Position numbers and translations under genes: made by a program. Shown here piece after piece: positions 51,141-56,615 of a DNA stretch of 64,000 bases. Source of the DNA: Escherichia coli (GTDB lineage: Bacteria > Pseudomonadota > Gammaproteobacteria > Enterobacterales > Enterobacteriaceae); the NCBI RefSeq assembly GCF_013315695.1, contig NZ_CP054353.1. One strand, given 5' to 3'. Within the stretch, counting starts at the first letter, position 1; the number at the start of each line of letters is the position of its first letter. A model generated the notes under the pieces. The model was not told the origin of the DNA, did no database searches, and saw only the letters and a list, made by a program, of their open reading frames with translations.

Positions 51141-52703
51141 ATGAACTCGTTTTCACTTCTGACAACCCCGTGGTTGCCTGTTCGTTTCAAAGACGGAACG
51201 ACAGGCAAGCTGGCATCAGTCGATCTGGCTGATGAGAATGTTGTCGATATCGCCGCACCGCGAGCAGATTTACAAGGTGCGGCCTGGCAGTTTTTGCTGG
51301 GACTACTACAAACCAGCTTCGCGCCAAAAGATCATCGTCGTTGGGATGATATCTGGGAAGACGGACTGGAAGCTGAAAAGCTACGAGAAGCATTGCTGTC
51401 TTTAGAACATGCTTTCCAGTTTGGGCCTGATTCATCTTCATTTATGCAGGATTTTGAGGCGCTCACGGGAGATAAAGTTCCGGTCGCTTCGCTACTGCCT
51501 GAGATTCCCGGCTCTCAAACGACGAAGTTTAATAAAGACCATTTTATCAAGCGGGGTGTAACGGAATATCTGTGCCCCCATTGCTTAGCATTGGCCTTGT
51601 TCTCTTTACAGTTGAATGCACCCGCGGGCGGCAAAGGCTATCGCACCGGTTTACGCGGCGGTGGGCCGATGACGACTCTCATTGAATTACAGGAATATCA
51701 GGGCAATCAACAAACACCCTTGTGGCGCAAACTGTGGCTCAACGTGATGCCGCAGGATGAAGCCGACTTACCGCTACCCAAAAAATTTGACGATCTGATT
51801 TTCCCCTGGCTAGGCCCGACGCGTACCAGCGAACTGGCCGGTGCGGTGGTAACCCATGATCAGGTCAATAAACTCCAGGCGTACTGGGGAATGCCGCGGC
51901 GTATACGTATTGATTTTAATACCACGACAGTCGGCAACTGCGATATTTGCGACGAGCAGAACGACGCGCTCCTGAGCCTGATGACGACCAAAAATTATGG
52001 TGCCAATTATGCCATGTGGCAGCATCCCTTAACGCCTTACCGTGTACCACTTAAAGAGGGTGGCGAGTTTTACTCCGTTAAACCACAACCGGGCGGTTTA
52101 ATCTGGCGCGACTGGTTAGGCCTTATCGAAACGGGTAAATCAGAAAACAATACGGAACTTCCCGCGCTGGTGGTGAAACTCTTTAATGCCAGCAGTCTGA
52201 AACAGGCAAAAGTGGGCCTATGGGGATTTGGTTATGATTTTGACAACATGAAAGCGCGCTGTTGGTACGAACACCATTTCCCGCTACTGCTCAATAAAAA
52301 AGAAGGCCAGATACCGAAGCTGCGGCTGGCTGCGCAAACGGCTTCACGGATTCTGAGTCTGTTACGGAGTGCATTGAAAGAAGCATGGTTCTCCGATCCA
52401 AAAGGTGCAAGGGGTGATTTCAGTTTTGTGGATATCGACTTCTGGAACAAAACTCAGCATCGCTTCCTGAGGTTAGTGCGCCAAATTGAAGAAGGTCAGG
52501 ATGCGGATGAATTACTCGGCAAATGGCAAAAGGAAATTTGGTTATTCGCGCGTCAGGATTTTGACGAGCGTGTATTCACTAATCCTTATGAGCCCGTTGA
52601 TTTGAAACGCGTCATGACCGCGCGCAAGAAATATTTTACAACATCGGCGGAGAAGCAAAGTGCTAAAGCCGCCAGGGAGAAAAAGCAGGAGGCTGCTGAA
52701 TGA
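51141..52703 (+). CDS. casA: Cascade large subunit Cse1 (CasA)
   Basis: About 520 aa; first gene of Cascade operon after cas3; RBS gagagga before ATG 51141 (alternative ATG 51135). Confidence 0.85.
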   Translation: MNSFSLLTTPWLPVRFKDGTTGKLASVDLADENVVDIAAPRADLQGAAWQFLLGLLQTSFAPKDHRRWDDIWEDGLEAEKLREALLSLEHAFQFGPDSSSFMQDFEALTGDKVPVASLLPEIPGSQTTKFNKDHFIKRGVTEYLCPHCLALALFSLQLNAPAGGKGYRTGLRGGGPMTTLIELQEYQGNQQTPLWRKLWLNVMPQDEADLPLPKKFDDLIFPWLGPTRTSELAGAVVTHDQVNKLQAYWGMPRRIRIDFNTTTVGNCDICDEQNDALLSLMTTKNYGANYAMWQHPLTPYRVPLKEGGEFYSVKPQPGGLIWRDWLGLIETGKSENNTELPALVVKLFNASSLKQAKVGLWGFGYDFDNMKARCWYEHHFPLLLNKKEGQIPKLRLAAQTASRILSLLRSALKEAWFSDPKGARGDFSFVDIDFWNKTQHRFLRLVRQIEEGQDADELLGKWQKEIWLFARQDFDERVFTNPYEPVDLKRVMTARKKYFTTSAEKQSAKAAREKKQEAAE

Positions 52704-53236
52704 GTATTGTAAAAGAGGAGCACAAAGCCACGCTGCGTAAATGGCACGAAGAGTTGCAGGAAAAACGCGGCAATCGTGCCAGTCTGCGGCGTAGCACAAC
52801 GGTTAATGATGTTTGTCTGTCAGAAGGTTTTCGTTCTCTGCTGATGCAGACCCACACGTTGTGGAAAATTGAATCACAGGAGTGGCGTTTTACCGCACTG
52901 GCGCTGGTTGCCGCCGTTGCCGCCAATGTAAAAGCCATTGATGAACGGCAGCCTTTTGCCGCGCAGTTGGCGGCGGTAATGTCTGAGGGGCGTTTTACTC
53001 GCCTGTCGGCAGTCAAAACGCCGGATGAATTACTGCGCCAGTTACGTCGCGCGGTCAAATTATTAAATGGTTCCGTCAATCTTATCTCTTTGGCAGACGA
53101 TATTTTCCGCTGGTGCCAGGAGAGTGACGACCTGCTCAATCATCACCGCCGCCAGCAGCGGCCAACAGAATTTATCCGTATCCGCTGGGCGCTGGAATAT
53201 TACCAGGCTGGCGACGCCGATAACGAACAAAATTAA
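52700..53236 (+). CDS. casB: Cascade small subunit Cse2 (CasB)
   Basis: 178 aa; ATGA overlap with casA stop; position between cse1 and cas7e. Confidence 0.8.
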   Translation: MSIVKEEHKATLRKWHEELQEKRGNRASLRRSTTVNDVCLSEGFRSLLMQTHTLWKIESQEWRFTALALVAAVAANVKAIDERQPFAAQLAAVMSEGRFTRLSAVKTPDELLRQLRRAVKLLNGSVNLISLADDIFRWCQESDDLLNHHRRQQRPTEFIRIRWALEYYQAGDADNEQN

Positions 53237-53250
53237 TAAAGGACTATCTC

Positions 53251-54316: not shown

Positions 54317-55063
54317 ATGAGCCAATATCTGATTTTTCAGCTTCATGGGCCAATGGCATCCTGGGGCGTTGATGCACCCGGTGAGGTGCGTCATACCCAT
54401 GAACTGCCTTCGCGTTCAGCATTGCTGGGGCTGCTGGCTGCCGGGGTAGGGATACGGCGTGATGACACCGAATGCTTAAACGCGTTTAATCGCCACTATT
54501 CACTGGTGGTTTGCGCCAGCCGTAACCCGCGCTGGGCACGGGATTATCACACGGTCCAGATGCCAAAAGAGGTGCGTAAAGCGCGTTATTTCAGCCGTCG
54601 CGAAGAGTTGAGCGACCCTGATCTTCTAAGCGCGATTATCTCCCGGCGCGACTACTACACCGATGCCTGGTGGATGGTGGCCGTGGCAACAACAGCTGAT
54701 GCGCCTTACAGCCTCGAACAGTTGCAGGAAGGTTTACGCCATCCGGCTTTTCCGCTTTATCTGGGGCGAAAAAGCCATCCGCTGGCATTACCCCTTGCGC
54801 CGTTACTGCTTGAAGGTAACGCGTCTGATGCCTTACGTAACGCATACCAACAGTATCAGGATCGTTTCCACGAACTGAAAGTCTCACTCCCGAAACTTCA
54901 GGATGAATGCTGGTGGGAAGGGGAGCACGATGGCCTGGTCTCGAGCAAAATATTACGCCGCCGGGATGTTCCTTTAAATCGTCAGCAGTGGCTGTTTGGG
55001 GAACGCACCGTCAATCAGGGGCCGTGGCTCAGCAAGGAGGAACCATGTACCTCTCAAGAATAA
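54317..55063 (+). CDS. casD: Cascade subunit Cas5e (CasD)
   Basis: 248 aa; N-terminus MSQYLIFQLHGPMASWG...LLGLLAAGVGIRRDD typical of Cas5e. Confidence 0.9.
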   Translation: MSQYLIFQLHGPMASWGVDAPGEVRHTHELPSRSALLGLLAAGVGIRRDDTECLNAFNRHYSLVVCASRNPRWARDYHTVQMPKEVRKARYFSRREELSDPDLLSAIISRRDYYTDAWWMVAVATTADAPYSLEQLQEGLRHPAFPLYLGRKSHPLALPLAPLLLEGNASDALRNAYQQYQDRFHELKVSLPKLQDECWWEGEHDGLVSSKILRRRDVPLNRQQWLFGERTVNQGPWLSKEEPCTSQE

Positions 55064-55695
55064 CCTTACATACCGGTCAGCTTTCGCCTGCGCAGTTGCT
55101 GCATTTGGTGGATCGCGGTGAATATGTGATGCATCAGTGGCTGTGGGATCTTTTTCCTGGCGGCAAAGAAAGGCAATTTCTTTATCGTCGGGAAGAACTC
55201 CAGGGCGCGTTTCGCTTTTTTGTCCTGTCGCAGGAACGCCCGGCGGAAAGTGAAACGTTCACCATCGAATGCCGGTCATTTGCGCCTGAACTGCATACCG
55301 GACAATCCCTTTGTTTCAACCTGCGGGCGAATCCAACAGTCTGTAAAGCGGGTAAGCGCCACGATCTGCTGATGGAGGCGAAACGGCAGGTGAGGGGGCA
55401 GGCGGAAGGAAGAAATGTCTGGTTGCATCAACAACAGGCGGCGCTGGACTGGCTGGCAGCGCAGGGGGAGAGAAGCGGTTTTACACTGCTGGATACCTCG
55501 GTCGATGCCTACCGACAACAGCAACTGCGGCGGGAAAACTCCCGGCAACTGATCCAGTTCAGTAGCGTGGATTATACGGGGATGCTTACGGTCACCGATC
55601 CTGGGTTATTTCTGCAACGTCTGAGCCAGGGGTATGGCAAAAGCCGGGCGTTCGGTTGTGGTCTGATGCTGATCAAACCTGGAGCAGAGGCGTGA
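55045..55695 (+). CDS. casE: crRNA endoribonuclease Cas6e (CasE)
   Basis: 216 aa from MYLSRITLHTGQ after AGGAGG RBS; C-terminal Gly-rich loop GYGKSRAFGCGLM; overlaps casD 3' end. Confidence 0.85.
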   Translation: MYLSRITLHTGQLSPAQLLHLVDRGEYVMHQWLWDLFPGGKERQFLYRREELQGAFRFFVLSQERPAESETFTIECRSFAPELHTGQSLCFNLRANPTVCKAGKRHDLLMEAKRQVRGQAEGRNVWLHQQQAALDWLAAQGERSGFTLLDTSVDAYRQQQLRRENSRQLIQFSSVDYTGMLTVTDPGLFLQRLSQGYGKSRAFGCGLMLIKPGAEA

Positions 55696-56615
55696 CGTTT
55701 GTACCGCTGAGCCCGATCCCGTTAAAAGATCGCACCTCCATGATCTTCCTCCAGTACGGTCAGATCGACGTACTGGACGGCGCTTTCGTGCTGATCGACA
55801 AAACAGGGATACGCACGCACATTCCGGTGGGAGCGGTCGCCTGTATTATGCTCGAACCGGGAACGAGAGTTTCCCACGCAGCGGTGCATCTGGCCGCCAC
55901 GGTGGGGACGCTACTGGTCTGGGTCGGTGAAGCGGGTGTTCGCGTCTACTCTTCCGGACAACCCGGTGGGGCGCGTGCTGATAAGTTACTCTACCAGGCA
56001 AAGCTGGCTTTAACGGAAGATCTACGCCTGAAGGTGGTGCGCAAAATGTATGAATTACGTTTTCGTGAGCCACCCCCCGCTCGCCGTTCAGTGGAGCAGC
56101 TACGGGGAATCGAGGGATCCCGCGTTCGCCAAACCTATGCATTACTGGCGAAACAATATGGTGTGAAATGGAATGGTCGCAAATACGATCCTAAAGACTG
56201 GGAAAAAGGCGATGTTGTCAATCGCTGCATCAGTGCTGCCACATCATGCCTGTACGGTATATCTGAAGCGGCTGTATTAGCCGCGGGATATGCGCCCGCT
56301 ATTGGTTTTATCCATAGTGGCAAACCGCTTTCATTTGTTTATGACATAGCCGATATCATTAAATTTGATTTGGTTGTGCCAAAGGCATTTGAAATAGCGG
56401 CAAGACACCCGGCAGAACCTGATAAAGAAGTGAGACTGGCCTGCCGTGATATTTTCCGTAGTAGTAAATTAACGGGCAAATTAATTCCGTTAATTGAGGA
56501 AGTCCTTGCCGCCGGTGAAATTGAACCACCACAACCTGCGCCGGATATGTTACCACCAGCTATCCCGGAACCTGAATTGCTAGGTGATAGTGGTCACCGG
56601 GGGCGCAGCGGATGA
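55692..56615 (+). CDS. cas1: Cas1 integrase
   Basis: GTG start overlapping casE stop (GTGA); about 307 aa, N-terminus (V)[26 protein letters not shown]. Confidence 0.9.

Follow-up and report, generated by a model that had tools for sequence, protein, structure and literature searches.

Overlapping start and stop codons in the cas-E1 type I-E operon of Escherichia coli: gene boundaries consistent with translational coupling

Introduction

Among the variants of the type I-E CRISPR-Cas locus of Escherichia coli, cas-E1 is the prevalent one and E2, the type of K-12, is in the minority (Almendros et al. 2014, PMC3903273). In the present study, the cas operon in a 64,000-nucleotide (nt) stretch of an E. 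coli genome (assembly GCF_013315695.1, contig NZ_CP054353.1; the whole stretch is referred to as the window) was analyzed, with attention to the points at which the end of one gene overlaps the start of the next. A first-pass annotation made from the sequence had described such overlaps in the cas operon and in the ygc, cys and isp genes of the window.

Coupling between the translation of neighboring genes has been measured in E. coli for hyfHI, astDB and ydbH/ynbE as well as for menDH (Huber et al. 2019, PMC6728339). Like the 4-nt-overlap pairs of the window, these are co-directional, overlap by ATGA or GTGA, carry the Shine-Dalgarno (SD) sequence within the upstream gene and often encode subunits of one complex; the cas, ygc, cys and isp pairs differ from them in being known here from sequence alone. 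When native E. coli pairs at a distance of -4 nt were tested, four of five were tightly coupled, mostly in an SD-dependent manner (PMC6728339). Coupling nearly vanishes at a spacing of ~20 nt, and overlapping pairs are enriched among the subunits of heteromeric complexes (PMC6728339, PMC10666635). In the single-gene Cas8/Cas11 arrangement of the type I-B, I-C and I-D systems, one mRNA likewise physically joins production of the large and small subunits, where the large-subunit gene reaches its 3′ end (bioRxiv 10.1101/2020.04.18.045682). Unlike Cas11, which is made there from an internal in-frame start, the small subunit casB of the window is a separate gene, in another frame, joined to casA by a 4-nt overlap.

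The analysis described below indicates that the overlaps very probably mark real starts and ends of genes, in an intact type I-E (cas-E1) operon as well as in housekeeping operons, and that the -4 and -1 junctions represent standard operon architecture at which translation is probably coupled.

Results

The cas locus is of the cas-E1 type

In megablast searches, positions 52700-56615 of the window matched ~2,700 of 5,426 complete E. coli genomes at 92.8-100% DNA identity; the cas locus of O157:H7 showed 94.1%. Strain MSB1_4I is 100% identical over 52700-56615, where its genes are annotated as casB, cas7e, cas5e, cas6e and cas1e, and its genome is collinear with window positions 26830-57091 at 99.98% identity. 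When its RefSeq coordinates were transferred to the window, all reading frames were intact and free of internal stops. The gene order, cas3, cse1/casA, cse2/casB, cas7, cas5, cas6e, cas1e, cas2e, agrees with the RefSeq annotation. Of the eight Cas proteins, seven scored above the curated cut-offs that NCBIfam sets for its type I-E models, and Cas3 did so for the cas3_core and cas3_HD domain models; the NCBIfam matches of all eight start from profile position 1-3. The composition profile revealed nothing foreign-looking in the cas operon.

The operon is located between cysH (47006-47740) and iap (57234-58271). Between cysH and cas3 lies a hok/sok module, with an Rfam sok match at 47863-48020 (111 bits) and hok at 48005-48157, encoding a Hok protein of 50 amino acids; in a scan of 47500-57500 against Rfam, sok was the only match. 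hok/sok at this position has been reported in E1 strains and in strains without cas genes, and not in K-12-type (E2) strains (PMC3903273). The CRISPR array adjacent to the cas genes (57002-57214) has four copies of the 29-nt I-E repeat with a period of 61 nt, two of them perfect, one at 90% and one degenerate. A second array of 14 repeats is present near queE (30486-31307). Relative to MSB1_4I, which is otherwise identical, the cas-adjacent array lacks one repeat-spacer unit of 61 bp; a promoter-like site is seen in its leader (56946-56973).

The window thus resembles the described cas-E1, O157:H7-type locus (PMC3903273) in gene order, in its cysH-iap position, in hok/sok and in the 29-nt repeats. 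Nothing material differs, the cas-adjacent array of the window being very short. Judged by these features, it belongs to the cas-E1 family of type I-E loci already described; each defining feature tested was present.

Overlaps and spacers between the cas genes

Genes, SD motifs and junctions from casA to cas2 are as follows.

51141-52703, plus strand: casA (cse1), 520 amino acids, coordinates from RefSeq; starts at the second of two ATG codons (51135, 51141); stop codon TGA at 52701-52703
52687-52692, plus strand: AGGAGG, Shine-Dalgarno of casB within casA, 7 nt before the ATG; duplex with the anti-SD -10.3 kcal/mol
52700-52703, plus strand: ATGA overlap of casA and casB, distance -4; casB ATG at 52700-52702
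52700-53236, plus strand: casB (cse2), 178 amino acids, TIGR02548
+14 nt, plus strand: casB/cas7 spacer, carrying AAGGA at 53239-53243
53251-54306, plus strand: cas7 (casC), 351 amino acids
+10 nt, plus strand: cas7/cas5 spacer; AAGGGG overlaps the cas7 stop codon
54317-55063, plus strand: cas5 (casD), 248 amino acids; stop codon TAA at 55061-55063
55034-55040, plus strand: AAGGAGG, Shine-Dalgarno of casE within casD; duplex energy -11.4 kcal/mol
55045-55063, plus strand: 19-nt overlap of casD and casE, from the casE ATG through the casD TAA
55045-55695, plus strand: cas6e (casE), 216 amino acids; stop codon TGA at 55693-55695; position 1 of TIGR01907 falls on residue 1
55681-55684, plus strand: GGAG, candidate Shine-Dalgarno of cas1, 7 nt ahead of the GTG start; made up of a casE Gly codon (GGA) and one further G of casE
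55692-55695, plus strand: GTGA overlap of casE and cas1, distance -4, with the GTG start of cas1
55692-56615, plus strand: cas1e, 307 amino acids, GTG start; stop codon TGA at 56613-56615
56612-56615, plus strand: ATGA overlap of cas1 and cas2, distance -4; cas2 ATG at 56612
56612-56905, plus strand: cas2e, 97 amino acids, TIGR01873; GGGGG 8 nt before the start

The 4-nt overlaps that had been described at casA/casB (ATGA), casE/cas1 (GTGA, with a GTG start) and cas1/cas2 (ATGA) match the sequence base for base, and the 19-nt overlap of casD and casE was found exactly at 55045-55063. An SD motif lies inside the 3′ end of the upstream gene before each of casB, casE, cas1 and cas2. The distance of -4 at casA/casB, casE/cas1 and cas1/cas2 falls inside the range expected of coupled pairs, about -8 to +6 nt, as do the -4 distances at ygcR/ygcQ and ispF/truD and the -1 distances at cysJ/cysI, cysN/cysC and ispD/ispF (see later section); casD/casE, at -19, falls outside it.

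No promoter-like site was detected on the plus strand inside casA-cas2, and the terminator-like hairpins there are only weak, of 5-6 bp. The spacer between cas3 and casA (51052-51140) is 89 nt long; its K-12 counterpart measures 414 nt and holds Pcas. In the window, a small hairpin with T6 after it (51107-51126) stands immediately ahead of the casA SD. No promoter-like match was found in this spacer of the window, and casA-cas2 may therefore be transcribed differently from K-12.

In K-12, casABCDE-cas1-cas2 have the same order and the N-termini of the proteins align with those of the window. The distances from casA/casB to cas1/cas2 are -8, +12, +2, -14, +15 and +1 in K-12 and -4, +14, +10, -19, -4 and -4 in the window. 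casA/casB and casD/casE are thus overlapped in K-12 also, behind strong internal SDs, and the casB/cas7 spacers (+12 and +14) both carry AAGGA; cas1 of K-12 starts with ATG after its 15-nt spacer, compared with GTG in the window. The kind of junction is thus common to E1 and K-12 at casA/casB, casB/cas7 and casD/casE, and the exact lengths differ. The proteins themselves have diverged: Cas3, CasA, Cas7, Cas5 and Cas6e are 21-35% identical to K-12 in amino acids, no significant alignment was obtained for CasB, and the values for Cas1 and Cas2 are 85-86% (~72% at the DNA level).

At each overlap the downstream gene is read in the -1 frame of its upstream neighbor, an arrangement that could also serve programmed ribosomal frameshifting, yielding CasD-CasE or CasE-Cas1 fusions. 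No slippery heptamer of the X XXY YYZ type is found in 55043-55063 (CCA TGT ACC TCT CAA GAA TAA), before 55692 or at the three 4-nt junctions, and fusion by frameshifting was rejected for want of such a site. No conserved downstream structure was seen either; every downstream gene begins at a conserved start codon with an SD of its own, and in the K-12 structures of Cascade and of Cas1-Cas2 the proteins are separate chains. Frameshifting at these overlaps is therefore extremely improbable.

Junctions are conserved in related loci

Relatives were collected with a single Cas6e scan of species-representative genomes, which gave 11 usable loci, nine of them from six other genera. The genera represented are Escherichia, Pseudocitrobacter, Salmonella, Klebsiella, Citrobacter, Phytobacter and Intestinirhabdus, most at ~75% identity of the Cascade proteins. 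casA/casB is at -4, casD/casE at -19 and casE/cas1 at -4 in all 11. casE starts with ATG in the Escherichia and Pseudocitrobacter loci and with GTG in all the others; cas1 starts with GTG in ten loci and with ATG in E. albertii. The cas7/cas5 spacer is +9 or +10 throughout, and the casB/cas7 spacer varies from +3 to +14.

Within E. coli, the 19 nt shared by casD and casE have no variable site among seven alleles, and five of six further alleles (93-96% DNA identity) have the same junction geometry. The exception is the PI6 allele, which has a casA annotated as a truncated gene and the sequence GGCTGATGAGC at the cas1/cas2 junction; its cas1 ends 3 nt earlier and its cas2 is annotated shorter, from an internal start. 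PI6 is an example of decay of the locus.

The SD motifs are retained as well. AGGAGG before casB is invariant in 12 of 12 taxa, and the GGAGG core before casE is present in 11 of 12, E. albertii having GGGGG. GGAG 7 nt before cas1 is kept in all 12 while the adjacent Pro codon alternates between CCT and CCC, and it probably functions as a Shine-Dalgarno. The 20 nt preceding casB (52680-52699) are the most conserved 20-nt stretch of the operon, with 90% of positions invariant compared to 51% overall (10 taxa; top percentile); in the same taxa, conservation of the 20 nt before casE, cas1 and cas2 is unremarkable. The palindrome AGCAG-GAGG-CTGCT (52684-52697) places the casB SD in a loop. In two taxa one pair of the stem is broken and no compensating change accompanies it, and no conserved structure is claimed.

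Cas1 is 92-96% identical among the genera, compared with 70-88% for the Cascade subunits. Together with the comparison to K-12, this places the adaptation module under much stronger constraint.

The scan also returned further cas6e genes of enterobacterial type. Contigs labelled as a Bacillota metagenome-assembled genome (MAG), a Collinsella MAG and Pseudocitrobacter vendiensis carry copies 96-98% identical to that of the window, and a 455-bp contig labelled Microbacterium oleivorans carries one that is 76% identical. Contamination or mis-binning, or else very recent transfer, is the likely origin of these four.

Start codons of casA, casE and cas1

The first-pass annotation had also taken the overlaps as support for internal starts over the longer ORFs (open reading frames) called mechanically. 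The starts themselves are upheld by homology, by the E. coli alleles and by comparison across genera; the overlap motif alone turned out to be weak evidence for a start site. The chosen starts are equal to those in the RefSeq annotation of a near-identical genome, and the type I-E NCBIfam profiles begin at residues 1-12 of the chosen proteins. In BLASTP and phmmer comparisons with K-12 proteins and PDB chains, M1 of CasE aligns to M1 of K-12 CasE, and the GTG codon of cas1 aligns to Met1 of K-12 Cas1 in PDB chains 3nkd, 5ds4 and 5vvk.

For casB, a stop codon stands in frame directly before the ATG, always so in the compared taxa, and therefore no earlier start is possible. At casA, position 1 of TIGR02547 falls on residue 5 and the motif GAGG is placed 6 nt before 51141 and 0 nt before 51135. 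Seven of nine loci from other genera have the N-terminus M-x-x-F-S-L-L with an ATG at the position of 51141, and none of the nine has the upstream ATG at -6.

The longer ORFs would start at casE ATG 54907 (262 amino acids), cas1 TTG 55656 (319 amino acids) and casA ATG 51135, with casD/casE and casE/cas1 overlaps of 157 and 40 nt. In favor of these codons, no other start codon intervenes between each of them and the preceding in-frame stop. Homology to the K-12 and PDB proteins and to the NCBIfam profiles begins at the shorter forms. Neither 54907 nor 55656 is preceded by an SD, and 51135 follows GAGG without a gap. TTG 55656 is replaced by CTG in three of six other E. coli alleles, while GTG 55692 and the GTGA junction are invariant in seven alleles.

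The pattern of substitution in these seven alleles (93-100% identity) points in the same direction. Within the open cas1 frame upstream of the GTG (55566-55691), nine of 12 variable sites are third codon positions of casE and ten of 12 are positions 1 and 2 of the extension frame; in the casE extension, one of 11 variable sites is a third position of the extension frame and ten are positions 1 and 2. An in-frame stop 0-15 nt before the GTG ends any longer cas1 frame in Salmonella, Klebsiella, Citrobacter, Phytobacter and Intestinirhabdus, and in the casE frame of these genera a stop stands 30, 36 or 96 nt before the start. The longer forms of casE and cas1 are refuted by these comparative data, and the set of longer ORFs has next to no chance of being correct. 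On the comparative evidence, casE 55045 and cas1 GTG 55692 are the correct starts, casA 51141 is very probably so, and the mechanical longest-ORF calls are wrong.

For ygcQ, the start at 39541 (versus 39508) has two grounds only, the RefSeq annotation and an AAGGA placed 8 nt before it; alignment to PDB stopped short of the N-terminal end.

Other overlaps of the window

Outside the cas operon, the following junctions were located.

39541-39544, plus strand: ygcR/ygcQ, ATGA overlap of 4 nt
45220, plus strand: cysJ/cysI, TAATG overlap of 1 nt
60860, plus strand: cysN/cysC, TAATG overlap of 1 nt
63072, plus strand: ispD/ispF, TAATG overlap of 1 nt
63548-63551, plus strand: ispF/truD, ATGA overlap of 4 nt
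59431 and 59433, plus strand: cysD/cysN, 1 nt apart (+1), absent from the first-pass annotation

The ygc, cys and isp overlaps had been called similar to those of the cas operon. All of them exist; ygcR/ygcQ and ispF/truD have the same 4-nt overlap, but cysJ/cysI, cysN/cysC and ispD/ispF share only the single nucleotide of TAATG. Same-strand overlaps that had not been listed are ygcS/ygcR (23 nt, 38765-38787), ygcO/ygcN (10 nt, 41391-41400) and, on the minus strand, yfiH/rluD (4 nt, 24961-24964). Convergent overlaps occur at nadB/trmN (16 nt, 2030-2045) and yfiM/kgtP (4 nt, 14450-14453).

Nine genes in the window end in ATGA or GTGA and five of these ends are real junctions; for ends of the stop-plus-TG type the numbers are eight and three. 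By itself, the overlap motif is not beyond chance. What establishes the junctions is the conserved protein that starts at every one of them. Same-strand neighbors within -8 to +6 nt make up 10 of 33 pairs in the window (~30%), the kgtP-clpB pair, which spans a ribosomal RNA operon, having been left out of the 34 listed. In the E. coli genome 707 of 2,987 pairs (24%) lie in this range, and among intergenic distances -4 is the commonest, with a secondary peak at +9 to +12 (PMC10666635). The frequency in the window is close to that typical of the E. coli genome.

Genome context

An IS4 element at 26830-28299 joins positions 1-26829 of the window to 28300-64000. Positions 1-28299 match the bamD-IS4 locus of MSB1_4I, and 26830-64000 match its eno-IS4-ygcG locus, which is ~190 kb away and in opposite orientation. 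In the top five near-identical genomes the two halves of the window are likewise far apart. Since the halves match separate and opposite loci in MSB1_4I, the strain of the window differs from it by an inversion that arose when two IS4 copies in inverted orientation recombined.

Discussion

It is reasonable to infer from E. coli precedent that translation is coupled at the overlaps whose coordinates, start codons and conservation are given above, and that this coupling has a quantitative role. The description of the overlaps in the first-pass annotation as consistent with translational coupling is fair and suitably cautious. A ribosome that terminates on the upstream cistron would sit on or next to the downstream start and could reinitiate there. 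Alternatively, the terminating ribosome may unfold the site for a new ribosome, aided by the SD embedded in the upstream gene. The enrichment of overlaps among subunits of heteromeric complexes fits Cascade and Cas1-Cas2. A literature search aimed at translational coupling in type I-E Cascade found no paper that brought all of these terms together.

The junctions would not all act alike. At casA/casB and casD/casE, with their strong internal SDs, coupling and de novo initiation are probably combined. At casB/cas7 and cas7/cas5, the 14- and 10-nt spacers with their own SDs probably permit independent initiation. The subunits of K-12 Cascade, Cse1:Cse2:Cas7:Cas5:Cas6e, are present in the ratio 1:2:6:1:1, and unequal output of the genes is therefore needed; independent initiation of cas7 would allow the six-fold excess of Cas7. 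casE/cas1 (GTG, 4-base GGAG, distance -4) and cas1/cas2 (-4) are likeliest to depend on upstream translation, an arrangement that would tie low-level synthesis of Cas1-Cas2 to translation of Cascade.

Several observations weigh against coupling. The strong SDs of casB and casE could drive fully independent initiation. The 4-nt overlap pair bioBF is uncoupled in E. coli (PMC6728339), and Quax et al. argue for frequent de novo intercistronic initiation, the Cascade operon included, as a need of uneven stoichiometry (PMC13347799). Accessibility of the start regions (ViennaRNA, -70 to +50) ranged from 0.30 to 0.57, with cas7 most open, and did not separate overlapping from spaced junctions, which makes the measure uninformative. 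The Cas1-side junctions are not overlapped in K-12 (casE/cas1 +15, cas1/cas2 +1), and among the relatives the cas1/cas2 distance drifts between -4, -1 and +3, so that the exact overlap is not conserved. This drift and the K-12 spacer before cas1 argue that an exact overlap is not required for a working I-E system. Conservation of the overlaps may also reflect in part the difficulty of changing doubly coding sequence and not selection for coupling.

The overlaps might, on these grounds, be real but neutral, a by-product of the turnover of starts and stops where an operon is compact, with each downstream cistron initiated de novo at an SD of its own and uncoupled from its neighbor. Besides the SDs of casB and casE, bioBF and the work of Quax et al., the differing distances of E1 and E2 and the occurrence of ATGA and GTGA gene ends without any downstream gene are in line with such turnover. 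Against it stand the unchanged -4 at casA/casB and casE/cas1 and -19 at casD/casE across all the loci compared, including those of the six other genera, and the GTG start of cas1, which with only a 4-base SD is a weak site for independent initiation. The tight coupling of most -4 pairs tested in E. coli and its collapse at ~20 nt also disagree with neutrality. Neutral turnover is thus an unlikely account of the junctions as a whole, and coupled operon architecture is preferred.

A stricter form of coupling may be considered for casE/cas1 of E1. Its GTG start, minimal GGAG and lack of a spacer would suit an obligate termination-reinitiation throttle, by which Cas1-Cas2 would be made only with, and in proportion to, translation of the Cascade mRNA; this is a speculative proposal and is rather improbable in so strict a form. 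If it were true, adaptation would be uncoupled from synthesis of the effector in K-12 E2, where cas1 has ATG, a 15-nt spacer and an SD of its own, and the throttle could be one contribution to the differences that have been reported between E1 and E2 in acquiring spacers.

The overlaps are correct but ordinary, being the commonest and already well-described form of operon packing in bacteria, and they open no long-standing question. Their main value is in quality control of the annotated starts of casE, cas1 and casA. They add one more operon for a heteromeric complex that uses -4/-1 overlaps, and they give a small hint that in the common cas-E1 type of E. coli the dosage of Cas1-Cas2 may be tied to translation of Cascade differently from K-12.

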